Positions 12,709-35,649 are shown, counted from the stretch's first letter. The stretch is 64,000 bases of DNA from Persicirhabdus sediminis (GCF_016595495.1 NZ_JAENIM010000016.1:1-64000), one strand, 5' to 3'. Numbers and translations are program-made. Notes: generated by a model not told the origin, from the sequence alone.

Positions 12709-12738
12709 ATCTTGTCACTAGGTACTAAGTAAAGAAAG

Positions 12739-12820
12739 TACCGGCAGTGGGAATCGAACCCACACTTCCGAAGAAACGCGATTTTGAATCGCGCGCGTCT
12801 ACCAATTCCGCCATGCCGGC
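12739..12820 (-). tRNA. tRNA-Leu (anticodon CAA) with a long variable arm
   Basis: The reverse complement reads GCCGGCA-TG-GCGG-AATTGGTAGA-CGCG-C-GCGAT-TTCAAAA-TCGCG-TTTCTTCGGAAGT-GTGGG-TTCGATT-CCCAC-TGCCGGT-A. Good cloverleaf. Anticodon-loop positions 3-5 are CAA. A class II long variable arm fits Leu. Confidence 0.8.
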
Positions 12821-18026: not shown

Positions 18027-18770
18027 TTATTTTTCAGCAATGCCAATGAAGCTGCGTGACCGTCTAAGCTCACGTAGGTAGAGCGGTTGTGCTAGCTGGG
18101 ATTTGGTCCAGAACCCGCTAGCTGACCCTTCACCGAGCACGACAGCTGTTTCAACTTTAAATGGAATCTTGGCATGGTTACTGAGTGTGTATGCCAGCGT
18201 TTTCAATGTGCAGGCAGGCGAGTAGGCGATCGCCCATTTGTTGCCGCCGTCGTGGATGATGAAGGTGCGTCGCTTGTATGAGTGAGCGTTGAGCTTGGCT
18301 GAGGTTTTGCCATCAGAGATCAGTAGCGGGCCGCTCTGCAGAAGTTGTTCCGGATTTTTCAGCGGTGATTGTAAATATTCTTTGCTAGGTTCTAGTCTAA
18401 CATTAGTGCCGTCTGTGGCTAAGATGGCGCATTGTTCGTTAGCTGTGCTGAAGGTATTAGAGATCACTTTGCCATCACAAACCGCCAAACCTTCGTGACT
18501 ACCAGATGCGGTTGCGCTAGCGCCATTACAGCCAGCAATGCAGTTGCGCTTGGCCATAGCAATTCTGAGATTTGCGTATTTTTGTTTGGAAATCCCTTCT
18601 TGGTCAATGATGAGGATGTCGTGCTTGCGGCTGTCGAAGCTGAAAAAATGCACGGTACGCTGGCTGCCATTGTAGCCTACCGGGAGCTCCAGAGCGAGAT
18701 GCTGGCCGAAGCTAGACGAGAGCGCCATGGTCATGGCGACGAGGGTGAGGGGTAGGCAATGAAGGTTCAT
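18027..18770 (-). CDS. Phosphodiester glycosidase-family protein (NAGPA-like, DUF2233), paralog 1
   Basis: The C-terminal region FIIHDGGNKWAIAYSPACTLKTLAYTL..AVVLGEGSASGFW parallels the neighbouring paralog (FIIWNGQHHWAIGYSSICSLNDLAAAL..ALNLDGGRSSDMW). Signal peptide. Confidence 0.55.
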   Translation of the reverse strand: MNLHCLPLTLVAMTMALSSSFGQHLALELPVGYNGSQRTVHFFSFDSRKHDILIIDQEGISKQKYANLRIAMAKRNCIAGCNGASATASGSHEGLAVCDGKVISNTFSTANEQCAILATDGTNVRLEPSKEYLQSPLKNPEQLLQSGPLLISDGKTSAKLNAHSYKRRTFIIHDGGNKWAIAYSPACTLKTLAYTLSNHAKIPFKVETAVVLGEGSASGFWTKSQLAQPLYLRELRRSRSFIGIAEK

Positions 18771-18834
18771 GGTGTTGCGGTTTTTGTGGACTACAGCAGG
18801 TGGTAAACACCAGTTATACGCATATGGAGCGATG

Positions 18835-19788
18835 TCAACGTTCCTTCAATACGAGGAAATTTCTCACATCTTTATTCCAGAATGCACGAAACTCCTTTTT
18901 TCCATGCGGCACATCAGCGCTGACCCACATGTCTGAGGATCTCCCGCCGTCTAGGTTGAGCGCGTATTTGATAGGGAATCCGACCAGTCTATCTGAGTTC
19001 AATGCGGCTGCTAGATCGTTGAGTGAACAGATTGAGCTGTAACCAATTGCCCAGTGGTGCTGGCCGTTCCAGATGATGAAACTGCGCACACGCTGGTTAG
19101 ACGTATTTAGACCAGATGTTTTTTTGCCATTTTCTATGAGAAATGGACCAGTTTGCAGGGCTTCTACGGCGCCTAATGAATTTGACCATTTCTGCCGGCG
19201 AATCAGCTGGGTTTCCGTAGCTGAGGTGTAATAAAATCCGGTGCCGAGCGAGCTCGGGTTGATATAACCCGCACTTCTTCCCTGGCTAACAATCTTGCCT
19301 AGCGGTTTTCCTTCTGGGGTGAAAAATCCACCATTGATGGCGGCTAGACCGCGCTGAGATTCAGCGCACTGGCGAGCGGTGAACCAACGTGTCCCTGGGC
19401 CAGCTGGCTGGTCGGCGACAACAAGTTTGTGATCTCTATCGTCAAAGCGGACAAATCTCAGGTCGATGCCGTTTTTCTTGGTATCGATAAATTTGAGTGT
19501 GGTGCGCGCTTGTGCTGATGGTTTGCTTTTGTGCGCGGTGGACGTTTTTCTTTCGTTGTTAGTATTAGCTAGATGCGGCTGGCTCAGAGGGCTTAGAGGC
19601 TCAGTTTGCGTGAGCTTATTCTGTTTGTCCTGCAGGTGGACCGATGGGTGGGGGATGTGGATCTCCTCCGCTTGCCTCTTATGATCAAAAGGTTGGCACG
19701 AACTCAGCCCAACAGCGAGCAGGGTGAGGCAGGATATGTTATAAATGGATCGTTGTTGGCTATGCTGAGTGGGCTGGCTGGAGGTCAT
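18835..19788 (-). CDS. Phosphodiester glycosidase-family protein (NAGPA-like), paralog 2, with a longer basic N-terminal linker
   Basis: See paralog 1. Tandem, same strand, separated by 64 bp. Confidence 0.55.
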   Translation of the reverse strand: MTSSQPTQHSQQRSIYNISCLTLLAVGLSSCQPFDHKRQAEEIHIPHPSVHLQDKQNKLTQTEPLSPLSQPHLANTNNERKTSTAHKSKPSAQARTTLKFIDTKKNGIDLRFVRFDDRDHKLVVADQPAGPGTRWFTARQCAESQRGLAAINGGFFTPEGKPLGKIVSQGRSAGYINPSSLGTGFYYTSATETQLIRRQKWSNSLGAVEALQTGPFLIENGKKTSGLNTSNQRVRSFIIWNGQHHWAIGYSSICSLNDLAAALNSDRLVGFPIKYALNLDGGRSSDMWVSADVPHGKKEFRAFWNKDVRNFLVLKER

Positions 19789-19801
19789 GAATACTGCAGG
19801 C

Positions 19802-20767
19802 TTAGTTGGGTTTTTCAGCGGTGGCTAGAAGTGTTTGGAAATGTGGACTTTGTTCTTCGCGGTCGACGATGGTGGTGTGGATCTTGATGAAACCTGCGTG
19901 CTCCATCATTTCCGCTAGCTCTACCTCTGAGAACCCTAACCAGACGTCGGCGTAGTGGTCGCGTGCTTTTTCAAAGTTGTGCTGTAGCAGATCGAGAATC
20001 ATCAGTTTGCCACCTGGCTGGAGGATGCGAAAAGCTTCAGCTAGGGCGCGTTCTGGCCGGTGAGCGTGGTGTAGTGCTTGTGATAAAATGGCTAGATCGA
20101 CGCTGCCGTCACTAATGGGGACCGATTCAATATCACCAAGACGGTAGTGTAGGTTAGGCAGCTCGTTAGTGACCGCTAGACGCTGGCCAAGCTCAACCAT
20201 TTTTTTGCTATTGTCTACTGCGATGACTTTTTCGGCGCTCTGAGCTAGCAGTTGGGATAAGGTGCCTTCGCCAGCGCCGAGGTCGGCGACCACACGATAA
20301 TTAAGCACTTTGATCAAGGCTTCACCTAATGATTTCCAGCTGCGTCCAGGGACGTAGTTTTTGCCAAAATTTCCAGCTAGACTATCGAAATATGCGCGAG
20401 CTTTGTCTCGGCGCTTGCGTAAAATATGTTTTAAGCTGGCGGTGTCTGAGTCGGTTTCTGGGATTTCCACCGCAGCTTGGCGAGCGACTTCCATCAACGC
20501 TGTTGGGGCGGTGATGGTATAGATGTTATTTTTTCCTGACCGACTGCTAGCGACGAGTTCTTCCTGTCTGAGCGCGGAGAGCTGAGTGGAGATGCGGCTT
20601 TGCCCCATACCGAGGATTTCCTGTAGCTCAACAACGCTGAGTGATTCGTGCTCAAGTAAGAGTAAAATGCGGATGCGAGTGGCGTCAGCTAACAATTTGA
20701 GTGATTTGAGAATGGATGCCATAGCTGGGTTATACAGAGCTGGATGTTGGGGCGAATCCACCAGCAT
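19802..20767 (-). CDS. ArsR/SmtB-family HTH regulator fused to a class I SAM-dependent methyltransferase
   Basis: N-terminal ATRIRILLLLEHESLSVVELQEILGMGQSRISTQLSAL (ArsR HTH). C-terminal VADLGAGEGTLSQLL (SAM motif I) ... ILQPGGKLMILD. Confidence 0.7.
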   Translation of the reverse strand: MLVDSPQHPALYNPAMASILKSLKLLADATRIRILLLLEHESLSVVELQEILGMGQSRISTQLSALRQEELVASSRSGKNNIYTITAPTALMEVARQAAVEIPETDSDTASLKHILRKRRDKARAYFDSLAGNFGKNYVPGRSWKSLGEALIKVLNYRVVADLGAGEGTLSQLLAQSAEKVIAVDNSKKMVELGQRLAVTNELPNLHYRLGDIESVPISDGSVDLAILSQALHHAHRPERALAEAFRILQPGGKLMILDLLQHNFEKARDHYADVWLGFSEVELAEMMEHAGFIKIHTTIVDREEQSPHFQTLLATAEKPN

Positions 20768-21746: not shown

Positions 21747-22230
21747 GCGCGTACTCTATGTAAATCTCTCGTTTTGCCAACTCATATTCTATTCTCTTTA
21801 GATGATACTCAGCTAATGGCGCAAAAGTGACACCAACCAGGTCGATTTCTTGCCCGGGAAATGCTAGTTAGAGGCGGTTTTGTTTCCCATTTGGAACATT
21901 TGAGCGTGTCCCAATATTTCTTTCCCGCAATTTACTTATGCTTGCGTTGTAATCTTGTTTTGTTAGCAGTTTTTGTAAGGTGATTGTAATCTTATCCATT
22001 ACAAGGGGATATAGGGCGCTTATTTATGTAGTTTGGTGGCTTTTGATCATTGTAGCTGGTTGCATTCATGTGATTTTTTCATTTTATTAGAAAAAAATGC
22101 TTTCCAAATGACGTCTGTTTGATTCTACTGAGTTCGCTCGATTGTGAAGTGTTGAGCAACAAAAAGTGAGTTACTAACCTACTCGTAATAGTATCTAGTA
22201 TTCATTTTTTCATTTGTTAATATGGGTTAG

Positions 22231-22269
22231 GAAGCCGTTGGGATGAGTGTCCCGACGGCTTTCTTTTTG
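22231..22269 (+). terminator. Intrinsic terminator or attenuator hairpin in the leader upstream of the nfeD-flotillin operon
   Basis: GCCGTTGGG-atgagtgt-CCCGACGGC then TTTCTTTTTGT. No ORF precedes it across 21750-22230. Confidence 0.5.
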
Positions 22270-22366
22270 TATCCTATCATGCTAACGGCCGTTAGTCGCT
22301 AGCTGTAAAAATTACCGAGATTTGTAATGGTCATCTGAAAAAATATAACTATTAGATATAGGGGTA

Positions 22367-23053
22367 ATGCAGGAAATTTGGCAGCAGGCTCTACTACCGT
22401 ATAATCTACCCCTAACCATCATGCTCGGCTTTGTTGGGTTATATGTTTTTTTGTTAATTCTAGGCGCGGTAGATTTAGATTTCTTAGATTTTGATTTTGA
22501 TACCGATGGGCTCGATTCCGATTTAGATGCAGGAGGAGCTAGTGACGCTGGCTTGTTTGCTTCAGTGCTTAAGTTAGTTAACGGTTCTGACATTCCGCTG
22601 ATGTTATTGCTCAGCTTGTTCACGATTTTTATGTGGGGGGCTAACTTGTGTCTCAATTATTATTTCAACCCCGATGGCACATGGTTAGTGGCTGGCATCT
22701 TGGCTCTTGTAGCCTTTTTCATCAGTGTAATCATCATGAGGTTAGTTAGTAAGCCACTAAGTCCATTCTTGCGCTCATTCCGTGCAGGTGAAAATAATGA
22801 TGAGCCAGTTGTGGGACGTGTCGCAAAAGTGAAGTCTAGCCAACTAACTGAGAAGTATGGTCAGTTGTTAGTTCCGCGCATGAAAGGAGCGCCAGCACTA
22901 GTTAATGCAAAGCTTGAAGATGGGGCTCAAGTGGCTAATAAGGATGAATTTGTACTAGTCACAGGTAAATCAGAGGGCTTGTTTATTGCTCGTTTGGCTA
23001 GTGAGTTAGAGCGTGATGATAGTAAGGTTGCTTATGGTGATGATTGGGGTTAG
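22367..23053 (+). CDS. NfeD-like membrane protein, the usual partner of SPFH/flotillin proteins
   Basis: Several N-terminal TM helices. C-terminal OB-fold-like region VVGRVAKVKS...GQLLVPRMKGAPALVNAKLEDGAQVANKDEFVLVTGKSEGLFIARL. It lies immediately upstream of the flotillin gene. Confidence 0.6.
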   Translation: MQEIWQQALLPYNLPLTIMLGFVGLYVFLLILGAVDLDFLDFDFDTDGLDSDLDAGGASDAGLFASVLKLVNGSDIPLMLLLSLFTIFMWGANLCLNYYFNPDGTWLVAGILALVAFFISVIIMRLVSKPLSPFLRSFRAGENNDEPVVGRVAKVKSSQLTEKYGQLLVPRMKGAPALVNAKLEDGAQVANKDEFVLVTGKSEGLFIARLASELERDDSKVAYGDDWG

Positions 23054-23220
23054 GACAGTCGAATGATTGATAGATTAGCTGATCTGTTAGCGTTTAATAG
23101 ACTTCTGACTGGCTTACAAAATTCTGATCACAATGTAACAGCCTTACCTAGCGAACTACGGTAAGTTCTTTTCGAGATAGTAAATTTCACAGTAAATAGT
23201 AAGTATCAAAGTAATACAAA

Positions 23221-25332
23221 ATGATGAATGAAATAACGAATTCCTTAGGGATGATAGATGGGCTGGCGAGTTTGCCAGTATATAACTTAGCGCTCCTTTT
23301 TGAGACTATTGGACTGATAGTTCTAGCGGTGATAGGTACAGTGTTTGCCTTTTTTATCTGCCTATCAAAATGCTTTAGAAAGGTAGAGAAAGGCACCGCG
23401 ATGATTAGAACGGGTTGGGGGGAAACCAAGGTGACCTTCACGGGTATGTTTGTTTATCCAGTTTTTCACCGTGTGGAACTCATGGATATCTCTCTCAAGC
23501 GCATTGTTATTGATAGAACAGGGAAAAATGGCCTGATTTGTAAAGACAACATGCGAGCTGACATCAAGGTGGCCTTTTTTGTACGCGTGAATAATGTACG
23601 TGAAGAGGTTATTCGTGTGGCTGAGTCTATCGGTTGTGACCGCGCCTCATCTGTTGAAGAAATCCGCATTCTCTTTGATGCCAAATTCTCAGAAGCGCTT
23701 AAGACCGTAGGTAAGAAGTTCAACTTCATCGCTCTCTACGAAGAGCGTGATACCTTCCGCGATGAAATCCTCAAAGTTATCGGTACTGACCTCAATGGCT
23801 TTGTGCTCGATGATGCGGCTATTGATTACCTTGAGCAGACTCCGGTCGAGTTGCTAGATCCAGATAATATTCTCGATGCTGAAGGTATTAAAAAGATTAC
23901 TGATCTCACCGCTGATCAAGCAAAGCTGTCTAACAATATCCAGCGCGAGAAAGAAAAAGTAATCAAACAGCAAGATGTGGAAGCTCGCGAAGCAATTCTT
24001 GAGTTAGAGCGCCAGCTAGCTGAAACCGAAGCTCGTCAGGCACGTGAGGTATCTAATGCCCAAGCACGTGAAGAAGCCTCAGCTGCCAAAGTTTCTGAAG
24101 AAGAACGCCAAAAATCTGAGCAAGCTCGCATTGCTGCTGAAGAAGAAATTGGTATTTCTGAGCAGAACAAAGAGCGCCAAGTTCTCATCGCTCAACGCAA
24201 CAAAGAGCGTACAGACGTGGTGGAAGTAGAGCGTGTGAAGCGTGATCATCAACTCGAAGAGATTGAACGTCAGCGCCTCACTGAGCTTAAGAGCATTGAA
24301 AAAGATAAAGCGGTTGAAGTTCAGAAGAAAGAAATTCAAGACGTCATCAAACAGCGTGTTGCTGTTGAAAAGACTGTTGTTATCGAACAGCAGAAAATTC
24401 TCGATACCGAAGCCTTTGCGGGAGCCGACCGTTCCAAGCAAGTCAAAGTCACTCTAGCTGAAGCTGCAGCTCAGGAAGTATTGATCCAATCGGTCAAAGA
24501 AGCTGAAGCTGAGAAAGAAGCTGCTATTCTCAAGGCTGATGAAGAAATGTACAAGCGCGTGAAAGCTGCTGAAGCTGACCGCCAAGCTGCTGAGCTGCAT
24601 GCTGAAGAGGTGGTTGTTTCCGCTGACGCTGAACTAACAGCATCGGACAAACAAGCGACTGCGAAGAAAATGTTAGCTGAGGCTACTGCTAAGGAAGCTG
24701 CCGCTATTGGTCTTGGTGAAGCTGAAGTCATGTTAGCTAAAGCAGATGCTACTGAGAAGCAGGGTACTGCTGAGGCGACCGTTGAGAGACTCAAGTACCA
24801 GGCTGACGCTGACGGTATCACACAGAAGGCTGAGGCAATGAAACTGTTTGAGCAAGCTGGTCAAGTACACGAAGAATTCAAACTCAAGCTTGAGAAAGAG
24901 AAAGTAGTTGAGTTGGCTGAAATTGACGTTCAACGTCAGATTGCTGAGCAACAAGCTCTCGTTGTTGGTGAAGCGCTTAAGAGCGCGAAAATCGACATCG
25001 TTGGTGGAGAAACTCAGTTCTTCGATCGCATTACTAACGCTATCACTACTGGTAAGGTGGTTGATCGTACCGTGGAAAATAGCCAAGTTATCGGCGATGT
25101 TAAAGAGACCTTCTTCAATGGTGACCCTGAGTACTTCAAAGCTCAAGTATCTACTTGGATTGATCAATTTGGTGTATCCACTGAGGACATCAAAAATCTC
25201 TCAGTTGGCGGTCTGCTAGGTAAGCTGATTGTTCAGTCTAATGGTGATGACCGTGACAAGCTCATGGGATTCCTTGGCGCTGCTGAGCGATATGGAGTGA
25301 AGGACCTTAAGGCGTCCAACTTCATTAAATAA
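23221..25332 (+). CDS. Flotillin-like SPFH/band-7 protein (YqiK/FloT-like) with a long Glu/Ala/Lys-rich coiled coil
   Basis: N-terminal TM, SPFH core (AMIRTGWGETKVTF...ISLKRIVIDRTGKNGLICKDNMRADIKVAFFVRV), then about 300 aa of heptad-rich EA repeats. Confidence 0.8.
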   Translation: MMNEITNSLGMIDGLASLPVYNLALLFETIGLIVLAVIGTVFAFFICLSKCFRKVEKGTAMIRTGWGETKVTFTGMFVYPVFHRVELMDISLKRIVIDRTGKNGLICKDNMRADIKVAFFVRVNNVREEVIRVAESIGCDRASSVEEIRILFDAKFSEALKTVGKKFNFIALYEERDTFRDEILKVIGTDLNGFVLDDAAIDYLEQTPVELLDPDNILDAEGIKKITDLTADQAKLSNNIQREKEKVIKQQDVEAREAILELERQLAETEARQAREVSNAQAREEASAAKVSEEERQKSEQARIAAEEEIGISEQNKERQVLIAQRNKERTDVVEVERVKRDHQLEEIERQRLTELKSIEKDKAVEVQKKEIQDVIKQRVAVEKTVVIEQQKILDTEAFAGADRSKQVKVTLAEAAAQEVLIQSVKEAEAEKEAAILKADEEMYKRVKAAEADRQAAELHAEEVVVSADAELTASDKQATAKKMLAEATAKEAAAIGLGEAEVMLAKADATEKQGTAEATVERLKYQADADGITQKAEAMKLFEQAGQVHEEFKLKLEKEKVVELAEIDVQRQIAEQQALVVGEALKSAKIDIVGGETQFFDRITNAITTGKVVDRTVENSQVIGDVKETFFNGDPEYFKAQVSTWIDQFGVSTEDIKNLSVGGLLGKLIVQSNGDDRDKLMGFLGAAERYGVKDLKASNFIK

Positions 25333-25494
25333 CAAATTATATAATGGGGAGCTAGGCTCCCCATTAGCCTGAATAATCAGGCTGATAGATTAAGCGCTTA
25401 TCGTGGCTACAGGTCAGTGATGAGGTGGCCACGGTGAGCGCTCATTTCCCCCAAGAATTTTATTGATAGAGAGTAAGGGTGTTAGCACCTGTAG

Positions 25495-28400
25495 ATGAAC
25501 AAGATGTCAGAGGAACAAGAGAATAATCAGCTAGAGAGTGGAGCTTACGAGGTGATCCGTGCCCGTATGGCCAAACATGGTACTGAGCTGCAGCAGCGCT
25601 TGAATCAGCTCAATGATGAACGCCGCGATGTGTTCGGTTCAATTGAGCCAGCTTTGTTAGCCACTGAGCGAATTAGTACACAGCACAATTGTGTCTCTCG
25701 CGATATGGTTTCTATCGGCAAGAACCGCTTCATCTTTGGTTATAACATTCACTTTGGCCTCAAACAGACTACAGAGTTAGGCGATGTTTTTGACCTCTAC
25801 GAATATCATCCAGCAGATCACACTTTTCATAAGTTAGATGAAGCTGAGTTATTTGGCGCTGAGTTTGAGGAAGATTTTAAATCACTGTACAAATATTATA
25901 AAGATACCGTCTTTGTAAAATTCATGGTGATTGGCCCTCATCTTTTCATGGGCATGCGAGTCGGCAAAGAGCTGACTAACATTAAGTGCTTCAAGTGGCT
26001 TCTCAAAGGTGATGGATCGCTCGATTACCTTGGAAACCGCTCAGATCACGAATATGTCTTTCCTCAGCAGCAAGAATTCCAGTGGAAGCGCGCGCATCGC
26101 GACATGCAGCGTTCTGGTGAGCACCCACACGTTTCTATCGAGGATAGATTGTTTGTTGAAACGGTTGGTGGTGATCTAACGATCAAGATCGAAGACAATA
26201 CAGAGACTGGCCAAGGGATTTACGAGGAATTGGTAGATGATCCAGATCAGACTCTCGACGATGCTGAGATTTTATACGCTACCGTGGGGCCGTTGATAGT
26301 TCTCAAGGTGCTGCCATACCGTGAAGAGCACTATCGATACCTTGTCTATAATGAGAAAACTCAGACGGTGGTGCGCTGTGACGCAATTGGCCATTCTTGT
26401 GTTCTATTGCCAGATGACCACGGATTGATATTTGCTAACGGCTATCTCTTGCTCAGTGGCGAGTTCAAAACCTTCGATCATGGTTTGCTCGATATGCGCT
26501 TTGAAAAGCGTATTGTTAGCGCCAATGGTGAGGATACATTTTTTGTTTTCTATAATCGTCAGAGTGGTGATTACGTTCTGCTTTCTTATAATCTAATTAC
26601 ACGCAGTATTGATACGCCTGTTATCTGTAGTGGTTATTCGTTATTTGAAAATGGTCGCCTGCTGTATTTCCGCAACGAAGATGAAGCGCAGAAACATCAT
26701 GTGATTCAGATTTGGCAAACGCCATACATCAATGATGAATATCAGACGCTAGAGACTGCTGGTAATGGCTCATTTATTAGCAAAATCGGCAACCAAGATA
26801 TCGTGCGCTGTATGTCCGAATGCCGTGAGGTATTGGGCCTGCTCGGTAAAGACGATTCATACGCCGACCTATATCTCGATTTGGTTAAGAAAACTGGCGA
26901 CCTCGTTGATGCTTATTTCTGGCTCAATAAAGACGAGATGTTTGATCTAGCTGAACCACTCAGCGAGATCAATGCTGCTGCTAGATCAGCGGTTGAGGAA
27001 TTTGAAAAAGTCCTCGAGCTGAGGAATTCAGCTAAACAAAAGACAGACGATTTAGAGTCTGCAGCGAAAGAGCTCATTCGTGAAATCGAGCACTCACCAG
27101 CTGATGATATCATTGGTTTTGTTAATCACCTAGCTCAGCTGAGACGGATGCGTGGTGAGGTGATAGGGCTTCGTGATTTGCGTTATAATGAGCCAGCTAG
27201 AATTGATCTCATCGAGCAAAGCTTGGTTGAGCAGATTCAGATTTTGTCCGATCTCACAGTGAAGTTTTTGCTCACGGAAGAAGCGCTCGATCCATATCGT
27301 GAGGCGGTTCAGTCGCAGAGTGAGGCGGTTAAAAATCTCGAGAAGGTAGCTGATGCTGATGCAACAGGGGCTGAGTTAGACAAAGCTGGCTCTGAATTAG
27401 AGATGCTGATCGAAATTGTCAGCAATCTCAAAATCGATGACGCGACCAAAACGACGGCAATCATCGAAAGCATTTCAGAGATTTATTCTACACTGAATGC
27501 GGTGCGGGCATCTCTCAAAGGGAAGCGCCACGATCTAGCAAAGTCGGAAGGTGTAGCGCAGTTTGCCGCGCAAATGAAGTTGTTGGGGCAAGCGGTGGTC
27601 AACTTCCTAGACCTTTGTGACACGGCTGAGAAGTGTGACGAATACCTCACCAAGGTGATGGTGCAGATTGAGGAGCTGGATGGAAAATTCTCTGAGTTTG
27701 ATGAATACCTCGAGCAGCTAGCCGCCAAGCGTGAGGAGGTTTACGACGCTTTTGAGGCGCGCAAGGTTGCCTTGCTAGAGAAACGCAACAAGCGTGCTAA
27801 CAACCTGATCAAGTCCGCTGAACGTATTCTTACTGGGGTGAGAAACCGTGCAGCATCATTTGCTGAAATCAATGAGATTAACGGCTATTTTGCTGGCGAC
27901 TTGATGGTTTCCAAGGTGCGTGAAATTATTGACGAGTTAGATGAGCTCGGAGACAGCGTGAAGGCTGCCGACATTCAAACTCGTTTGAAGACACTGCGTG
28001 AAGATGCGGTGCGTCAGCTGAAAGATAGAAACGAGCTCTTTGTTGATGGGACTAACATCATTCAGTTTGGTAAGCATCAATTCACGGTTAATACTCAAGA
28101 GCTTGAGTTAACTGTGGTGCCGCAAGGTGATGAAATGAGTTTCCATCTAGCGGGAACTGATTTCTTTGAGCGAATTGACGATCCTGATTTTTTGAAGACC
28201 CGCTCAGTGTGGTCACAGGAGTTAGTTTCTGAAAATCGTGCAGTGTATAGATCTGAATATCTGGCTTATTTATACCTTTTGCATGCTGAAGAAAATGGCC
28301 AGCTAGAAGTTTCTGATGATCTGCTCAGCCAGGTTCAGGCATTTGCTAACAATAGATACTCTGAGGGCTACACTAAAGGGGTTCATGATCATGATGCTGA

Positions 28401-30603
28401 GTTGATTTTGCGTAAGTTACTGCCCATGCACAATGAAGTGGGTATGCTGAGGTACAGCCCCGCTGTACGCGCTTTTGCGATGCTTTTCTGGAAGCAATGG
28501 CATCATGAAGATAAAAGCCAGCTAGAGGTGAAGCTCAGAGCTCAGGGCATGGTGGAGGCAGTTTTTGTTTCTGTTGATAGAAACGAGCGCAAAAAGTACC
28601 AAGCGGAACTAGAGCGTGAAATTGACAAGTTTGCTGGTAGCCAGAATTTGAACTCAGTGACTATCGTTCAACGCGCTGCGGAATATTTGATCGCGCATTT
28701 TGCTAGAGCTGAGAGTTTTGAAATTTCCAGCCAAGCCGCTGAATGGGTGCAGAAGTTCCACACAACATTGAGTGCGAAGCGCGTGGGTGACCAATACGAT
28801 AATTCTCTAGCTGAGTTAGATGGAAATGTTATTGGCCAGTACCAAGTGATTGGAGCTTGGTTGCGTGGATTTGCAGCGAGTGTGACCGACGACTTGGACG
28901 CATACAATGCTGAGCTGCAGATGATGTATTTGCAGGAGGCTGCTGCCCATCTGCTGTATGGTGGCCATGACCCTAAATCAGTAGTTAGGGTGGAGTTGAT
29001 GGCTGAATGTGAGGGTTTATTAGGGCAACACGCAGTAGTTAGTGATGGGAAATATCATTTCCACTATAATTTATTCATCCGTAAGATGCTAGATTTTAGC
29101 CAGTACGATGTGCCAGTCTATCAATCATACCAGGAAACGAAGTCACAGTTGTTGGAGCTCAAGCGCGATGAGATGCGTCTCGACGAATTTAAACCACGTG
29201 TGATGTCATCATTTGTCCGTAACCGTCTACTCAACGAGGTGTATCTGCCAATTATTGGAGACAATCTAGCGAAACAGATGGGTACAGCTGGCAAAGATAC
29301 CCGCACAGATAGAATGGGCATGTTATTGCTCATCTCTCCTCCAGGTTATGGTAAGACCACTTTGATGGAGTATATCGCCGATAGACTTGGCATTACTTTC
29401 ATGAAGATCAATGGGCCAGCTCTGGGGCACGAGGTGAAGTCGCTAGATCCAGCTGAAGCTCCTAACGCATCAGCGCGTGAGGAGGTTCAGAAACTTAACT
29501 TAGCTCTGGAGATGGGGGATAATGTCATGATTTACCTCGATGATATCCAGCATACACACTCTGAGTTTTTGCAGAAGTTCATCTCGTTATGTGATGGTCA
29601 GCGCAAGATCGAAGGTGTCTATAAAGGTCAGGCAAAGACTTATGATCTGCGAGGTAAGAAGGTAGCCGTAGTGATGGCGGGTAACCCTTATACAGAGACT
29701 GGTGGTAAGTTCCAGATTCCTGATATGTTAGCCAACCGCGCTGACACCTATAACTTAGGTGATATTCTGGGGGGCCATGAAGCTGCCTTTAAGGCGTCCT
29801 ATATTGAGAACTCACTGACATCTAACGCTGTACTGTCAAAACTTAGTAGTCGCAGCCAGCAAGATGTCTATGCGGTGATGAAGTTAGTAGAGGGGGCTCC
29901 TCGTGATGAGATTGATTTTGAGGCACCGTTTTCCGCCTCGGAAGTTGAAGATTTTATTCGTGTTATGACACATCTCTATAGAGTTAGAGATTCCATTCTT
30001 CGGGTAAACCTAGAGTACATCCACAGTGCGGCTCAGGAAGATAATTACCGCGTGGAGCCAGCATTCAAGCTACAGGGTTCCTACCGTAATATGAACCGTA
30101 TCGCTGAGAAGGTGATTCCTCTGATGACTGATGAAGAAGTTAGCGAGCTCGTGATCAGTCACTACGAGAGTGAGTCGCAGACCTTAACGACGGGTGCGGA
30201 GGCTAACCTTTTAAAGTTCAAAGAAATGGAGGGGATACAAACCGCTAGCGAATCAGCACGTTGGCAGGAGATCAAAGATGAGTTTTCTAAACAGAAACTT
30301 CTCGGTGGAGCTGGTGATGATGATCCCGTGGCTAGGGTGGTCGCTCAGATGTCTCAGTTCAATGATGGTCTCTCAGCTATCAATGGTGGATTGCAATCAT
30401 TAGGTTCTGTCTTCACCGCTCCCAAGCAGCTAGATGATCCAACACTTGCTAAAATTGAGTCGCTCATTAGTGGGTTGCGTTCAGTGCCTGTACAGGTCGA
30501 TATTAAAGTAGTACCTGTGCAAGAACAGTCATCCGTTAGCCCAAAAAATACGGATGATGGCAAAATGGTTGATATCGAACCTGAAGTGAGACAGCTTGAG
30601 TGA
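25495..30603 (+). CDS. Giant (1702 aa) coiled-coil protein with a C-terminal AAA+ ATPase domain, of the kind often annotated 'DNA repair ATPase'
   Basis: Walker A LLISPPGYGKTTLMEYIADRLG, Walker B MIYLDDIQH, arginine-finger region VVMAGNPYTETGGKFQIPDMLANRADTYNLG. A long α-helical/coiled-coil middle section. The N-terminal about 450 aa is β-rich. Confidence 0.7.
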   Translation: MNKMSEEQENNQLESGAYEVIRARMAKHGTELQQRLNQLNDERRDVFGSIEPALLATERISTQHNCVSRDMVSIGKNRFIFGYNIHFGLKQTTELGDVFDLYEYHPADHTFHKLDEAELFGAEFEEDFKSLYKYYKDTVFVKFMVIGPHLFMGMRVGKELTNIKCFKWLLKGDGSLDYLGNRSDHEYVFPQQQEFQWKRAHRDMQRSGEHPHVSIEDRLFVETVGGDLTIKIEDNTETGQGIYEELVDDPDQTLDDAEILYATVGPLIVLKVLPYREEHYRYLVYNEKTQTVVRCDAIGHSCVLLPDDHGLIFANGYLLLSGEFKTFDHGLLDMRFEKRIVSANGEDTFFVFYNRQSGDYVLLSYNLITRSIDTPVICSGYSLFENGRLLYFRNEDEAQKHHVIQIWQTPYINDEYQTLETAGNGSFISKIGNQDIVRCMSECREVLGLLGKDDSYADLYLDLVKKTGDLVDAYFWLNKDEMFDLAEPLSEINAAARSAVEEFEKVLELRNSAKQKTDDLESAAKELIREIEHSPADDIIGFVNHLAQLRRMRGEVIGLRDLRYNEPARIDLIEQSLVEQIQILSDLTVKFLLTEEALDPYREAVQSQSEAVKNLEKVADADATGAELDKAGSELEMLIEIVSNLKIDDATKTTAIIESISEIYSTLNAVRASLKGKRHDLAKSEGVAQFAAQMKLLGQAVVNFLDLCDTAEKCDEYLTKVMVQIEELDGKFSEFDEYLEQLAAKREEVYDAFEARKVALLEKRNKRANNLIKSAERILTGVRNRAASFAEINEINGYFAGDLMVSKVREIIDELDELGDSVKAADIQTRLKTLREDAVRQLKDRNELFVDGTNIIQFGKHQFTVNTQELELTVVPQGDEMSFHLAGTDFFERIDDPDFLKTRSVWSQELVSENRAVYRSEYLAYLYLLHAEENGQLEVSDDLLSQVQAFANNRYSEGYTKGVHDHDAELILRKLLPMHNEVGMLRYSPAVRAFAMLFWKQWHHEDKSQLEVKLRAQGMVEAVFVSVDRNERKKYQAELEREIDKFAGSQNLNSVTIVQRAAEYLIAHFARAESFEISSQAAEWVQKFHTTLSAKRVGDQYDNSLAELDGNVIGQYQVIGAWLRGFAASVTDDLDAYNAELQMMYLQEAAAHLLYGGHDPKSVVRVELMAECEGLLGQHAVVSDGKYHFHYNLFIRKMLDFSQYDVPVYQSYQETKSQLLELKRDEMRLDEFKPRVMSSFVRNRLLNEVYLPIIGDNLAKQMGTAGKDTRTDRMGMLLLISPPGYGKTTLMEYIADRLGITFMKINGPALGHEVKSLDPAEAPNASAREEVQKLNLALEMGDNVMIYLDDIQHTHSEFLQKFISLCDGQRKIEGVYKGQAKTYDLRGKKVAVVMAGNPYTETGGKFQIPDMLANRADTYNLGDILGGHEAAFKASYIENSLTSNAVLSKLSSRSQQDVYAVMKLVEGAPRDEIDFEAPFSASEVEDFIRVMTHLYRVRDSILRVNLEYIHSAAQEDNYRVEPAFKLQGSYRNMNRIAEKVIPLMTDEEVSELVISHYESESQTLTTGAEANLLKFKEMEGIQTASESARWQEIKDEFSKQKLLGGAGDDDPVARVVAQMSQFNDGLSAINGGLQSLGSVFTAPKQLDDPTLAKIESLISGLRSVPVQVDIKVVPVQEQSSVSPKNTDDGKMVDIEPEVRQLE

Positions 30604-30717
30604 AATATGTCACACAAAAGTATTGATTTCCCTCGCAAGGCTCTAGTTAGCTGCTGAGCGGACCTGAAATAGGCATTGTAATTTTACTAAACTTTACTAA
30701 ATTTAAGGTCTTGTTGT

Positions 30718-32442
30718 TTGGTCTGTGGCCCCAAATGGGGATACGATCTTGAGCATAAATGGGCCATGAAGGAAGCTGAGCAGATTTCAGAGAGGTATCG
30801 GACAACTCGTCAAATTGGCGCAGGTGGCTTCGGTGTTGTCTATCAAGGGGTAGACGAACGTCTCAAACGTGAGGTTGCTATCAAACGCATGTTGCCACAG
30901 CGTGAGGGGAAGCGTGCTCTGCCTACCCAGATGCTCTATGAGGAGGCCGCAGTATTGGCCTCACTGCAGCACCCTAACATCGTTACGATTCATGATATTT
31001 GTAACGATGATCACGGGGTGCTTGTGGTCATGGAGTTGCTGAAAGGCAAAACGCTCAATGAGGCTGTAGAAAGGCAGGAGTGCGATTTGATCGAGTTGCG
31101 AGACTTGGTGGTACAAACCCAAGATGCTCTCAGCGCGGCGCGGGAGGCAAATATTGTCCACTGTGATCTGAAACCTCAAAATATCATGTGCTCGCCGCTG
31201 CCAAGTGGGTCGGTACAGTACAAGTTGCTAGACTTTGACCAAGCTCGTCTGACGCGCAACAAGGACGTAGAAACCAGCTCATCGAAGCAGGCGATGAGGG
31301 GCTCAATTTACTTCATGGCTCCCGAGCAATTTGAGGGTAAACCTGGTACCTTTGAGAGTGATCAATATGCAATGGGCTGCATCTATTATTACTGTTTGAC
31401 GGGGGTTCACCCGTTTGATGGTGATAGTGCTGTTCAAGTAATGGCTTCGCATATTCAGGGACGCATGACGCCTTTGTTGGAGTTGCGACCAGATTTGCCT
31501 GTTTGGCTAGATACTTGGCTGATGCGTTTACTGGCTCACGACCCAGCTAAGCGACCGGGCTCTCCGCAGGAGGTGATGACGGAGTTTCTCGATCATTATA
31601 ATTGCGAAGGAAAGAGCTCGTTAGATAGGCAAAAAGAATACGCGGCGCGACTGCGACGTAAAAAGGAGTTAGAGGCGAGCCAATCTCACGAGCCATCTGG
31701 TGCATCTGAGGTGAATACAACCGACCCTTATAATACGTGGTATTACGCGCAAGGGTCTCGTGTTAGTGGGCCACACAATAGGACGACGATTAAAGAATTT
31801 GTCGCTCAGGCAGTTCTATCAGCGGAGGATTTGATTTGGAGCCCAACCCTCGATAGCTGGTTAGAGGTGAAAGATGTCGATTTTGCGAGCACCAAGCTGC
31901 CGGATCGAGAACCCGTCGAAGAAAGCAAAGAGTTTGGGATGCGCTTACCCAAATGGCTGCGAAATGCTGTTGAATGCTTGTCTTTGGAGCTTTCCGTGGC
32001 ACTTGTTTTTTTAGTCGATTTGTTGCTGCTTGGCTTTGTTTACCAGATGGGAAGCCTGTTGATTTATTTCATTGGCGGCATGGGCTTGTTATTTATTGCT
32101 TGGTTAGGTCTTAAGTTCCGCGAGTTTAAGGTGAGCAAGAAATGGTTTTTATGGGGAATGATTTTGCAGACTTTCGTGGATGTTATCTTCTGTGCTACCT
32201 ATCCTAAAAAGGTTTGGAGGTCATTGGTATTGGTCGTTCTATCTGGGATATTGTTATCACTCGCTATTTCTAGCCGCGACGGGCAGTTGATGATGAATAA
32301 GGTTGGAGTGAAAGCTCGATGGGGGGCATTACTCAACCCAGGTAAGCTCATGCCTGGAGATGATTCCTCGAATAAATCTGAATCAAAAGAGGATCAGGGC
32401 GTGAATCTAGAAGATTCTCCATTTTTTAAAACTGATAGGTAG
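30718..32442 (+). CDS. Hanks-type Ser/Thr protein kinase with a C-terminal multi-pass membrane domain
   Basis: Gly loop GAGGFGVVYQG, VAIKRM, catalytic HCDLKPQNIM, DFD (DFG variant), APEQ. About 4 TM helices in the last 180 aa. Confidence 0.75.
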   Translation: MVCGPKWGYDLEHKWAMKEAEQISERYRTTRQIGAGGFGVVYQGVDERLKREVAIKRMLPQREGKRALPTQMLYEEAAVLASLQHPNIVTIHDICNDDHGVLVVMELLKGKTLNEAVERQECDLIELRDLVVQTQDALSAAREANIVHCDLKPQNIMCSPLPSGSVQYKLLDFDQARLTRNKDVETSSSKQAMRGSIYFMAPEQFEGKPGTFESDQYAMGCIYYYCLTGVHPFDGDSAVQVMASHIQGRMTPLLELRPDLPVWLDTWLMRLLAHDPAKRPGSPQEVMTEFLDHYNCEGKSSLDRQKEYAARLRRKKELEASQSHEPSGASEVNTTDPYNTWYYAQGSRVSGPHNRTTIKEFVAQAVLSAEDLIWSPTLDSWLEVKDVDFASTKLPDREPVEESKEFGMRLPKWLRNAVECLSLELSVALVFLVDLLLLGFVYQMGSLLIYFIGGMGLLFIAWLGLKFREFKVSKKWFLWGMILQTFVDVIFCATYPKKVWRSLVLVVLSGILLSLAISSRDGQLMMNKVGVKARWGALLNPGKLMPGDDSSNKSESKEDQGVNLEDSPFFKTDR

Positions 32443-33568: not shown

Positions 33569-34372
33569 TCACAGCTTAATGGCTGCGCACTGAGCTGGTA
33601 GGTTTGGAGCAAGGAGGTGCCAGAGTTTTCGGAATTTTTCGGCGTCAGCTGTGCTGAAGGCAAAAATATCTCTAGCTGCTGGCTGGGGTTCTGACTTGCC
33701 AATAACTCTAGCAACCTGTTCAGCAACGGCGGCGCCTGTGTCTATCAGCTGGATGGAGTTGCCGAGAATGGCTTTCATACTTGGTAGTAGGAATGGGTAA
33801 TGAGTACAGCCCAAAACAATTGTGTCGACCCCTGCCTCGAGCATGGGGGCAGCGTATTCATTTATCGCGTCTTCGACTTCTGGTCCGTTTAAGATGCCAG
33901 CTTCCACGAGCTCAACGTATTTGGGGCAAGGGCGAGTGATTACATTGACCCCTCCAGCGTGGTCGTAAATCAAGCGGTGAAATTTTTCTCCAGCAATAGA
34001 GGCCTCGGTGGCAAATACTCCAACAATGCCGTTTTTGGTTTGTTTGCAGGCCGGCTTAATAGCTGGCTCCATGCCGACAAATGGCAGGGGGAAGTGTGCC
34101 CGTAAATACTCTATCGCGTGAATTGTCGCTGAGTTACAGGCAATTACAATGCACTCAGCGCCCATGCTAATGAGTTTTTCGGTAGCTGTTGCTGTGCGCT
34201 GTTGGATCTGCTCAGGGGATTTATTGCCATATGGGCACCACGACGAGTCGCCAATGTAGCGAATCGAATGGTTAGGCAGTCTCTTGCAGATCTCGAGAAC
34301 CACAGAAAGCCCGCCAATTCCAGAGTCTATCACTCCTATGATTGGTCTGTCTCTGTCTGGCTCAGTATCCAT
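33569..34372 (-). CDS. murI: Glutamate racemase (MurI). The ORF extends to 34582. The internal start at 34372 (MDTEPDRDRPIIGVIDSGIGG) gives a normal-length protein and removes the overlap with the next gene.
   Basis: IGVIDSGIGGLSV, GDSSWCPYG, VIACNSAT, VLGCTHYPFL. Confidence 0.85.
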   Translation of the reverse strand: MDTEPDRDRPIIGVIDSGIGGLSVVLEICKRLPNHSIRYIGDSSWCPYGNKSPEQIQQRTATATEKLISMGAECIVIACNSATIHAIEYLRAHFPLPFVGMEPAIKPACKQTKNGIVGVFATEASIAGEKFHRLIYDHAGGVNVITRPCPKYVELVEAGILNGPEVEDAINEYAAPMLEAGVDTIVLGCTHYPFLLPSMKAILGNSIQLIDTGAAVAEQVARVIGKSEPQPAARDIFAFSTADAEKFRKLWHLLAPNLPAQCAAIKL

Positions 34373-34410
34373 GAAGTTGATTTTAAAAAGTTGATTAGTG
34401 GCTGGCAAAC

Positions 34411-35649
34411 CTATTCCTCTGCACTCATCTGGATGATTGATTTCCCGACACGTGTGCCCGATGCAAAACATCCCTGCATGAGGTAGCCGCCCGTCGGCGC
34501 CTCCCAATCTATCATTTCTCCACAGGCAAAAATTCCAGGCAGCTTGTTGAGCATTAATTGCTCGTTGAGTTCGCTCCAGCATATGCCGCCGGATGTTGAA
34601 ATGACTTCATCGATTGGGCGAGGGGAGTCGAGGTCAATACGGCAGGCTTTTATCTGAGTGGCTAGAAGGTTGACGTCGTTAGTGTGTTTGTATTGGTGCT
34701 TGATCAGCGCCATAGCTTGCGGCGAGAGTTTCCAGCGGTATTTAGCTTCTCGCAATAAGCCGTGTTGTTTGCCGCCCATTTTCGCCACTAACTGGTCATG
34801 TGTAAATGTAGGTTTGAGGTCTATCTCGATATAGGCTTTTGGCAAGCTACGGAGTGTTCGTCCTATCTGATAGATGGCGCTACCTTCGAGGCCATATTTG
34901 GTAATCATTACCTCGCCAGTCACTTTTTGATCCCCACAGCTGAGGTGAATATTTTTCAGTGGTTTGCCTTCCGCTATTTTGAGAAATTCGTCATTCCACG
35001 GATGCATCCACCCGCAGTTATCAGCTTGTAAGGTTTGATAACAGACTTGCTGTTGGTCGAGGATGTCTCTCCATGCTCCATCAGAGCCAGTTTGTGGCCA
35101 TGAGGCGCCGCCCATAGCGAGGACGACATAACGATGATTGTAGCTAGTTCTTTCGTCCAGTGGGCTTGTGAATGTTAGTTTGTATCCTTGTTCTTTTTCA
35201 GCTGGCGCGATGCTAGCCAGTTTGTGGCGCATGCGAAAATTTACTCCTTGTTCGCGGAGTTTGTGAACCCAGCGACGCAATAATGGCGCAGCTTTCATTG
35301 CTTCTGGGAATACTTTTCCGCTGTTAGCTGTGAATGTTGTAATGCCTAGGCCTTCAGCCCACTCACGAATCATCTTATTATCAAACTCTTTGATGATAGA
35401 AGCCCATCTCTGTAGATCAAATTGGCCGTTGTGACTGCCGCCGTAGTAACTAATGAAGGTGTCGAGGTCTTCATCTTTAGTTAGGTTGAGGCCACTTTTT
35501 CCTGCAACGAGAAATTTTCTACCAACAGATGGCATGGAATCATAAAGCACGCAGCTAATTCCTGCAGCTGATATGAGCTCTGCGGCGCGGAGGCCAGCTG
35601 GTCCGCCACCGATGATGGCGACCGTTTCGGATGTTGATTGAGAGCTCAT
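34411..35649 (-). CDS. HI0933/BaiN-like NAD(P)/FAD-dependent flavoprotein
   Basis: N-terminal VAIIGGGPAGLRAAE dinucleotide fold. 412 aa, typical family size. Confidence 0.7.
   Translation of the reverse strand: MSSQSTSETVAIIGGGPAGLRAAELISAAGISCVLYDSMPSVGRKFLVAGKSGLNLTKDEDLDTFISYYGGSHNGQFDLQRWASIIKEFDNKMIREWAEGLGITTFTANSGKVFPEAMKAAPLLRRWVHKLREQGVNFRMRHKLASIAPAEKEQGYKLTFTSPLDERTSYNHRYVVLAMGGASWPQTGSDGAWRDILDQQQVCYQTLQADNCGWMHPWNDEFLKIAEGKPLKNIHLSCGDQKVTGEVMITKYGLEGSAIYQIGRTLRSLPKAYIEIDLKPTFTHDQLVAKMGGKQHGLLREAKYRWKLSPQAMALIKHQYKHTNDVNLLATQIKACRIDLDSPRPIDEVISTSGGICWSELNEQLMLNKLPGIFACGEMIDWEAPTGGYLMQGCFASGTRVGKSIIQMSAEE

Follow-up and report, generated by a model that had tools for sequence, protein, structure and literature searches.

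A conserved yqiJ-like, flotillin and giant AAA+ ATPase operon in Persicirhabdus sediminis and its possible role in membrane remodelling

A 64-kb stretch of the genome of Persicirhabdus sediminis (Verrucomicrobiaceae, Verrucomicrobiota), in the following called the window, which is the whole length of DNA analysed, carries on its + strand four successive open reading frames (ORFs; 22367-23053, 23221-25332, 25495-30603 and 30718-32442 by ORF calling) for a YqiJ-like protein of 228 aa, a flotillin of 703 aa, a giant AAA+ ATPase of 1702 aa and a Ser/Thr kinase of 574 aa. The flotillin and ATPase genes are separated by 162 nt and the ATPase and kinase genes by 114 nt; the four ORFs and the gaps of 162 and about 115 bp reported in an earlier reading of the bare sequence (the original prediction) were thus recovered where that reading had placed them. 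The core of the locus is the triad of yqiJ-like gene, flotillin gene and giant ATPase gene, a three-gene operon that is kept across about ten phyla. With three predicted transmembrane (TM) segments in the YqiJ-like protein, one in the flotillin and none in the ATPase, the products fit a membrane assembly. The three genes and the parts of the flotillin, the latter recognized in part by hidden Markov models (HMMs), are located as follows.

22367..23053, + strand: yqiJ-like gene, encoding a 228-aa inner-membrane protein of the NfeD2/YqiJ family
23221..25332, + strand: flotillin-like (SPFH2) gene of the ATPase-linked subfamily (profile match to YqiK)
23308-23364, + strand: N-terminal TM helix of the flotillin, aa 30-48 (TM prediction)
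23368-23895, + strand: SPFH domain of the flotillin, about aa 50-225 (HMM/profile match to YqiK)
23896-24972, + strand: Glu/Ala/Lys-rich coiled coil of the flotillin, about aa 226-584 (composition)
24973..25329, + strand: C-terminal domain of the flotillin of ~120 aa, aa 585-703 (subfamily-specific HMM)
25495..30603, + strand: gene for the giant soluble AAA+ ATPase of 1702 aa (Pfam and AlphaFold)

Conservation of the linkage was assessed by scanning the GTDB species, one genome each, with a diverse alignment, which yielded at least 584 candidate stretches encoding a relative of the ATPase; 80 loci with 10-kb flanks were kept and supplemented by five annotated loci from plasmids or chromosomes and three from close relatives, and the ORFs called in these neighbourhoods were searched with HMMs built from the window proteins. 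A flotillin gene is located directly upstream of the ATPase gene on the same strand in 68 of the 70 loci with more than 2.6 kb of upstream sequence, and a YqiJ-like gene is detectable before the flotillin gene in 58 of 66 informative loci. The loci belong to Bacteroidota (33), Verrucomicrobiota (23), Planctomycetota (13) and Bacillota (5) as well as to Desulfobacterota, Lentisphaerota, Fibrobacterota and Pseudomonadota; plasmid records add Actinomycetota and Deinococcota, and source names also indicate Acidobacteriota (Sulfidibacter), Sumerlaeota and Binatia. As a whole, the ATPase family comprises about 4,400 protein clusters. With a median of 18 nt, the gap between yqiJ and flotillin genes agrees with translational coupling; between flotillin and ATPase genes, the median gap is 140 nt.

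The same association is evident in a plasmid collection, where the N-terminus of the ATPase matches 13 records and the flotillin SPFH part 310. The 13 best SPFH records (41-64% identity) are exactly the 13 ATPase records; the matches listed below these are at most 36% identical and are mostly YqiK-type flotillins of Enterobacteriaceae and rhizobia, and the ATPase is absent from all 297 other flotillin-bearing records of the collection. This co-occurrence, 13/13 versus 0/297, therefore sets the ATPase-linked flotillins apart as a distinct subfamily. Adjacency to flotillin and NfeD-type genes across phyla, on which the original prediction had made its proposed module depend, is a recurrent property of the family.

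As searches of Pfam, NCBIfam and PDB gave nothing usable for either the flotillin or the product of the first ORF, homology was shown by profile comparison with YqiK and YqiJ. By single-sequence search, the 703-aa flotillin finds no Pfam model even at E<=10, Band_7 included, and no PDB sequence at E<=1; NCBIfam likewise provides nothing usable, and a profile of 16 flotillin sequences has QmcA as its sole, weak match (E=0.027). Upon comparison of the flotillin profile with Escherichia coli YqiK, hhalign reports 99.9% (E=1.2e-34; aa 34-501 versus 25-439), an alignment that covers anchor, SPFH domain and coiled coil with about 34% identity over the aligned region, and the HMM of the SPFH part (aa 50-225) matches YqiK at 1.7e-30. 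In the YqiJ-like protein, TM helices predicted at aa 14-32, 70-88 and 106-124 are followed by a C-terminal beta-rich OB-type domain. Single-sequence BLASTP against E. coli YqiJ is weak (E=4e-6) and the Pfam model YqiJ_N stays below threshold (E=0.021); a profile of 61 orthologues aligns with E. coli YqiJ over its full length including the OB-type C-terminus (hhalign 99.5%, E=5e-23, aa 8-216). The initial designation of this protein as NfeD holds in so far as it is NfeD-like, of the YqiJ type that belongs to the NfeD2 group (Hinderhofer et al., 2009), and has to be revised in so far as there is no match to Pfam NfeD.

The homologous gene pair is found in the same order as yqiJ-yqiK in E. coli and yuaF-floT in Bacillus subtilis, two NfeD2-SPFH2 operons described in a paper in which the word 'ATPase' appears nowhere in the text (Hinderhofer et al., 2009; PMC2636767), and the architectures, three TM helices with an OB-type C-terminus in one protein and N-terminal anchor, SPFH domain and coiled coil in the other, match. 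In contrast to the window, no ATPase gene is located behind E. coli yqiK, and the window flotillin is 150 aa longer, ends in a different C-terminal domain and is missed by Pfam Band_7 and Flot. The Flot domain (Pfam PF15975), on which YqiK scores 139.8 bits, is not detected at its C-terminus. As judged by sequence, the window flotillin thus represents a divergent subfamily and not a canonical YqiK/FloT; its homologues within Verrucomicrobiota are 69-80% identical among the matches listed.

The hallmark of this subfamily is the C-terminal domain. Its HMM matches 69 of 70 full-length ATPase-adjacent flotillins across phyla, the exception being the copy on plasmid pQBR103 (L004), and in the plasmid collection the domain is found by tblastn solely in records that also carry the ATPase. 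The last 120 aa have no counterpart in E. coli YqiK (hhalign probability 0.1%). The domain is a candidate docking site for the ATPase, and a C-terminal domain specific for ATPase-linked flotillins appears to be new.

The ATPase itself is composed of several modules, all encoded on the + strand.

aa 15-47: N-terminal helix (AlphaFold)
25651-26718, aa 53-408: beta-propeller, Pfam DUF3686 (Pfam, AlphaFold and Foldseek)
aa about 427-850: helical/coiled-coil region including DUF7902 (Pfam and AlphaFold)
aa about 855-1230: small beta domain and helical domain (AlphaFold)
29212-29874, aa about 1240-1460: AAA+ module, followed by a C-terminal helical domain and a disordered tail
29344..29544: catalytic core, from Walker A to Walker B

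Pfam recognizes DUF3686 (E=2.6e-183), DUF7902, AAA and AAA_5 in this protein, but neither a protease nor a peptidase domain, and TM prediction finds no TM segment. AlphaFold models of aa 1-700 and aa 840-1702, with a predicted local distance difference test score (pLDDT) of 85 and 82, respectively, show a propeller for which Foldseek retrieves WD40-type, PON1 and Ycf48 propellers, and an AAA+ module with a beta-hairpin ahead of sensor 1. The features of an AAA+ ATPase, namely Walker A, Walker B, sensor 1, arginine finger and an alpha/beta core with lid, are all present. Walker A (GYGKTT, aa 1284-1289) and Walker B (LDD, aa 1348-1350), the motifs already pointed out in the original prediction, are 99% conserved among 82 full-length homologues from about ten phyla, in which Walker B always reads DD, and the sensor-1 residue N1397 and R1415 are 100% conserved. 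With 99-100% conservation of its catalytic residues the ATPase is under selection as an active enzyme. A loop near-invariant in the same homologues, KINGPxxGHxVxSLDPxEAPNA (aa 1304-1325), occupies the position of pore loop 1 and does not contain an aromatic residue.

On the level of fold, the models place the AAA+ module in a MoxR/dynein-like clade, catalytically intact by sequence, an assignment that appears to be new. Profile and structure searches, the outcome of which could have turned the module into a known entity, did not match a characterised family, and the ATPase belongs to none. The resemblance to the MoxR family (CbbQ, NorQ, RavA) and to the AAA_5 modules of dynein and midasin is structural only, at an identity of 11-15%. 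MoxR proper is a compact protein of about 300 aa with a VWA/MIDAS partner gene, while the 1702-aa window ATPase has no such partner gene; compared with MoxR and dynein, it possesses a single AAA+ module behind a 1200-aa N-terminal extension, and its Walker B motif is DD, not DE. Precomputed Pfam matches show extra repeat domains in two family members, ankyrin repeats in P0426 and HEAT/Arm-type repeats in P0432, which suggests variable adaptor modules. A metagenomic protein of 1798 aa (P0361) apparently joins flotillin positions 201-603 in frame with ATPase residues 228 onward, but lacks the SPFH part of the flotillin and ATPase residues 1-227; being a single ORF and probably the product of a deletion or of faulty assembly, it was not counted as a 'Rosetta stone' fusion.

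In the databases, members of the family, including the 100% identical P. sediminis entry, are named 'DNA repair ATPase' or 'ATPase involved in DNA repair'. That the enzyme acts on DNA as annotated is, however, very improbable. Besides the names, this reading can refer to RuvB and MCM among the Foldseek matches, to a LexA-family regulator in Bacteroidota loci and to weak RuvB-type matches, but the latter cover the P-loop alone and fall below the curated cut-offs (NCBIfam RuvB 22.8 bits versus 282; Pfam RuvB_N 22.2 versus 27), and the conserved context consists of membrane proteins. The misgiving of the original prediction that the label had been given without supporting evidence is borne out, and thousands of 'DNA repair ATPase' annotations are thus unsupported.

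A flotillin next to an AAA+ protein calls to mind HflK/C and FtsH, where an SPFH-family scaffold is coupled to a hexameric AAA+ machine at the inner membrane. SPFH cages enclose AAA proteases in this way, and the C-terminal region of known SPFH cages is situated at the outside or the cap. By analogy, the ATPase could be held or enclosed by the flotillin cage and be regulated by it, as FtsH is by HflK/C, to act on other membrane-proximal substrates. The linkage data speak for such an arrangement in the same way as for remodelling of the scaffold by the ATPase, and a 26-mer cage of QmcA has been deposited (PDB 8z5g). Nevertheless, we consider it unlikely that the ATPase is the client of a cage, as it has neither a TM segment nor a protease domain, as a hexamer, at about 1.1 MDa for six 1702-aa subunits and with its long coiled coils, may not fit inside, and as the flotillin C-terminal domain would, from the general placement in such cages, sit at the outside or cap. 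FtsH is a TM-anchored protease of the classical AAA clade, and HflK/C, on the periplasmic side, is without an NfeD partner; the window ATPase, on the other hand, is soluble, lacks the M41 protease domain, is MoxR/dynein-like and has five times the size of the FtsH AAA module. Homology of the genes is at most at the superfamily level. The parallel to HflK/C-FtsH, offered in the original prediction as a precedent, is therefore reduced to an analogy. Another likeness is provided by Vps4-ESCRT-III and the AAA+ partners of PspA/Vipp1, in which an AAA+ ATPase is equally coupled genetically to a membrane-remodelling polymer, although the window ATPase is devoid of the MIT domain and belongs to another AAA+ clade, and the window does not encode PspA.

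Between the flotillin and ATPase genes, the transcript is predicted to be unusually structured.

25333..25494, + strand: structured intercistronic spacer with three consecutive stem-loops and no U-tract
about 25344-25364, 25363-25386 and 25393-25442, + strand: the stem-loops of the spacer (folding)

The first hairpin, ATGGGGAGC-TAG-GCTCCCCAT at 25344-25364 with an 11-bp stem at 25342-25366, is the one that had been noticed beforehand; it is real and without a U-tract, but lies a few bases from the 25350-25372 originally given and is the first of three. The 162-nt spacer has a minimum free energy of -68.8 kcal/mol (z=-6.6), and none of 200 shuffled sequences folds as well, whereas the other three spacers of the region are ordinary (z of -0.8, +1.3 and -0.9). 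Among related loci with a flotillin-ATPase spacer of 50-400 nt (n=32), the median z is -3.7 and 19 of 32 spacers are below -3, compared with a median of +0.44 and a single spacer below -3 for the yqiJ-flotillin controls (n=14; Mann-Whitney p=1.5e-5), whereby z-scores are derived from mononucleotide shuffles and the control spacers are shorter on average. By a crude parse, about a third of the hairpins in related loci are followed by a T-rich tail. A REP-like (repetitive extragenic palindromic) element as the identity of the hairpin was rejected, since its sequences are not repeated elsewhere in the window. The suggestion that the hairpin sets relative expression gains support from the recurrence of structured spacers in other phyla next to unstructured yqiJ-flotillin spacers: the spacer probably lowers expression of the ATPase relative to the flotillin, be it as a partial terminator or through stabilisation of the upstream mRNA. 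Such recurrent flotillin-ATPase hairpins appear to be new, with no published mention found. Small ORFs are present between flotillin and ATPase genes in about 25 loci, PDDEXK_3-family genes and others; not being conserved, they were rejected as parts of the module. The PDDEXK_3 genes, of 108-139 aa, occur at this position among the closest relatives, in L087 (7410-7784) and L088 (7482-7808), and also in L007 and L026.

Operons of this type have been described computationally, often together with PspA and a CesT/Tir-like protein, whereby abbreviated operons composed of flotillin, YqiJ/YuaF and sometimes the ATPase are more widespread and may cooperate with a PspA whose gene lies elsewhere (Ravi et al., 2024, mSystems; PMC11237479). 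The window, in which PspA is missing, corresponds to the abbreviated operon and agrees with it in the kinds of component, in gene order and in domain architecture, including a YqiJ/YuaF-type protein with three TM helices (TM prediction and profile), a membrane-anchored flotillin with band-7 domain and coiled coil (one TM segment, profile match to YqiK), and coiled coil and beta-propeller N-terminal to the AAA+ module (AlphaFold, Foldseek and Pfam AAA). With the association of these genes in print since 2024, the locus does not count as a new discovery, and its original portrayal as an uncharacterised module is right in that only a computational description exists and wrong in that this description had already been made. 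The publication dedicates a single paragraph to the operon, without quantification (Ravi et al., 2024), and further literature search retrieved no other paper on it. What is added here is the near-obligate linkage, the flotillin subfamily with its C-terminal domain, the AAA+ clade, the DD variant of Walker B and the hairpins.

In 16-18 loci, from Bacteroidota, the triad is preceded by a CesT/Tir-like gene, a PspA/IM30 gene and a divergent LexA-like regulator (helix-turn-helix, HTH, plus S24), and the published Dokdonia example has the same layout as these Bacteroidota loci, the divergent HTH-plus-protease regulator included (Ravi et al., 2024). On pQBR103 of Pseudomonas fluorescens SBW25 (L004, 986-14190), the triad is joined to a yjfI/PspA/rhomboid/DUF2491/DUF350/DUF1190/glutathionylspermidine-synthase-like cluster to form a same-strand array of 12 genes. 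In a clustering of the neighbourhood ORFs, YqiJ and flotillin were the sole conserved partners, joined in a subset by CesT/Tir, PspA and the regulator. The triad is hence fused to the CesT/Tir-PspA envelope-stress operon in a subset of genomes, which links it to stress; the same contextual inference was reached independently by Ravi et al. (2024). Genes of polyamine biosynthesis, for arginine decarboxylase, a saccharopine-dehydrogenase-like protein, an Orn/DAP/Arg decarboxylase and an agmatinase-like protein adjoin the triad upstream in Oceaniferula spumae (L087, 1-4521), an observation that echoes the PspA-polyamine link noted in the same publication.

The variable surroundings could also be taken as the signature of an accessory, horizontally mobile triad that detects infection or damage to the membrane and then saves the cell or sacrifices it. 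The triad occurs patchily and is also found on plasmids and megaplasmids (pQBR103 as well as plasmids of Hymenobacter, Streptomyces and Deinococcus), and the flanks differ in every close relative. E2/JAB/E1-BubE-type and deaminase genes are found near the Oceaniferula triad, where a Prok-E2, JAB+ThiF and BubE cluster with a deaminase is located downstream (L087, 14938-19092), RHS and transposase genes are found near the triad of strain R5-34, and LexA-like (HTH + S24) regulators and PspA ('phage shock') in many loci. However, PADLOC-DB 2.0 gives no match for the YqiJ-like protein or the flotillin, only generic kinase models for the kinase and, for the ATPase, only a P-loop-level match to IetA (E=9.5e-4, 29 residues). 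Strong conservation, exemplified by the 69-80% identity of the flotillins among the Verrucomicrobiota matches listed, is at odds with the rapid diversification typical of defence genes, and neither a nuclease, a protease nor another effector is conserved in the operon. A function in anti-phage defence or conflict is thus quite unlikely.

The fourth ORF of the locus has been considered a member of the module.

30718..32442, + strand: Hanks-type Ser/Thr kinase with GYF_2 domain and a C-terminal anchor of 3-4 TM segments (Pfam Pkinase, 155.7 bits)

The kinase shows the motifs GAGGFG (aa 34), VAIK (53), HCD (148), DFD (172) and APE (201); HCD and DFD as well as four C-terminal hydrophobic segments had been described before and are present, with three strong segments and one weaker. 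The ORF as called starts at TTG; an in-frame ATG 16 codons further on (30766), still ahead of the kinase domain, is a possible alternative start. In a four-gene machine, this membrane kinase would regulate the flotillin-ATPase complex or be regulated by it, as might be supposed from its membrane anchor, its position on the same strand after a gap of only 114 nt, and an ATPase-kinase spacer that is unstructured and without a predicted terminator. Yet a kinase homologue flanks the ATPase gene solely in this window among 86 ATPase-carrying loci; there is none in the 85 others, which include the nearest relatives (61-65% identity), and the closest relatives Oceaniferula, strain R5-34 and Sulfuriroseicoccus have unrelated genes downstream of the ATPase gene. 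Moreover, holB, an unrelated housekeeping gene, follows next in the same orientation. As the adjacency is not conserved, the kinase was rejected as a fourth component, in departure from the original prediction; kinase and holB are chance neighbours of the operon in this genome. A four-gene machine is accordingly most improbable, and like action in DNA repair it is disfavoured by the data.

Upstream of the yqiJ-like gene, a divergent AT-rich region of 620 nt (21747-22366) contains a strong terminator-like hairpin on the + strand (22229-22264), in which a 16-bp stem is followed by TTTTTGT. No credible ORF or Rfam match is found upstream of this hairpin, and the region could provide a small RNA or a regulatory leader. 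Rfam has no match in the operon region, its sole match in the window being a tRNA-Leu (12738-12820), and a sigma-70-like promoter match at 22378-22405 was discarded, as it is located inside the first ORF and such matches are no more frequent in the region than expected by chance. Elsewhere in the window, two tandem paralogues with a NAGPA phosphodiester-glycosidase domain (18027-18770 and 18835-19788), adjoined by a gene for an ArsR-type HTH fused to a S-adenosylmethionine (SAM)-dependent methyltransferase (19802-20767), occupy 18027-20767 on the - strand. Also on the - strand, a glutamate-racemase-like ORF and an upstream ORF for an HI0933-like flavoprotein (33569-34582 and 34411-35649) overlap by about 170 nt; the true start of the racemase-like ORF is probably further downstream, because the Pfam domain begins at residue 99.

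On balance, we regard it as probable that the triad gives rise to a machine at the cytoplasmic side of the inner membrane in which the scaffold is remodelled by the ATPase in membrane stress, with kinase and holB incidental. The flotillin, with its one-TM anchor and the YqiJ-type helper, would form an SPFH-type oligomeric scaffold or cage on the cytoplasmic face, on which the ATPase would dock by way of its propeller and coiled coil, with the flotillin C-terminal domain as a possible site. ATP hydrolysis may then drive assembly, opening or disassembly of the scaffold, or the remodelling of clients, in a membrane-stress or repair response, in cooperation with PspA/ESCRT-III-like proteins where these are present, and the spacer hairpins may keep the ATPase sub-stoichiometric to the flotillin scaffold.

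Several observations weigh against remodelling of the scaffold by the ATPase. The non-aromatic loop in the position of pore loop 1 makes canonical threading of a polypeptide doubtful, and, with RuvB and MCM among the fold matches of the models, a nucleic-acid substrate is structurally conceivable. An adjacent flotillin gene is missing in five loci (L021, L029, L031, L044 and L084), and neither a PspA gene nor a CesT/Tir-like gene is found elsewhere in the 64-kb window. The mode of shuffling and the length of the control spacers qualify the hairpin comparison, and a literature search retrieved no paper mentioning DUF3686 or PF12458.

A more specific form of scaffold remodelling, in which the DUF3686 ATPase is specialised to open or disassemble, at the expense of ATP, a special class of flotillin cages to which it is recruited via the flotillin C-terminal domain, is put forward tentatively, as a possibility that we regard as rather doubtful. 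If true, the ATPase would be the first enzyme known to act as an active remodeller of SPFH scaffolds and would stand to them as Vps4 does to ESCRT-III or NSF to SNAREs, and bacterial flotillins would perform a stress-triggered, controllable cycle of capture and release of a membrane patch.

With respect to the role of bacterial flotillins and to the opening, closing and turnover of SPFH cages, a dedicated flotillin subfamily coupled almost obligately to a giant, catalytically intact AAA+ motor makes this operon a natural experimental entry point. Tractable hosts that carry the operon include P. fluorescens SBW25 with pQBR103, Proteus mirabilis, Vibrio campbellii and Streptomyces, of which pQBR103, a well-studied megaplasmid, is a convenient experimental system.

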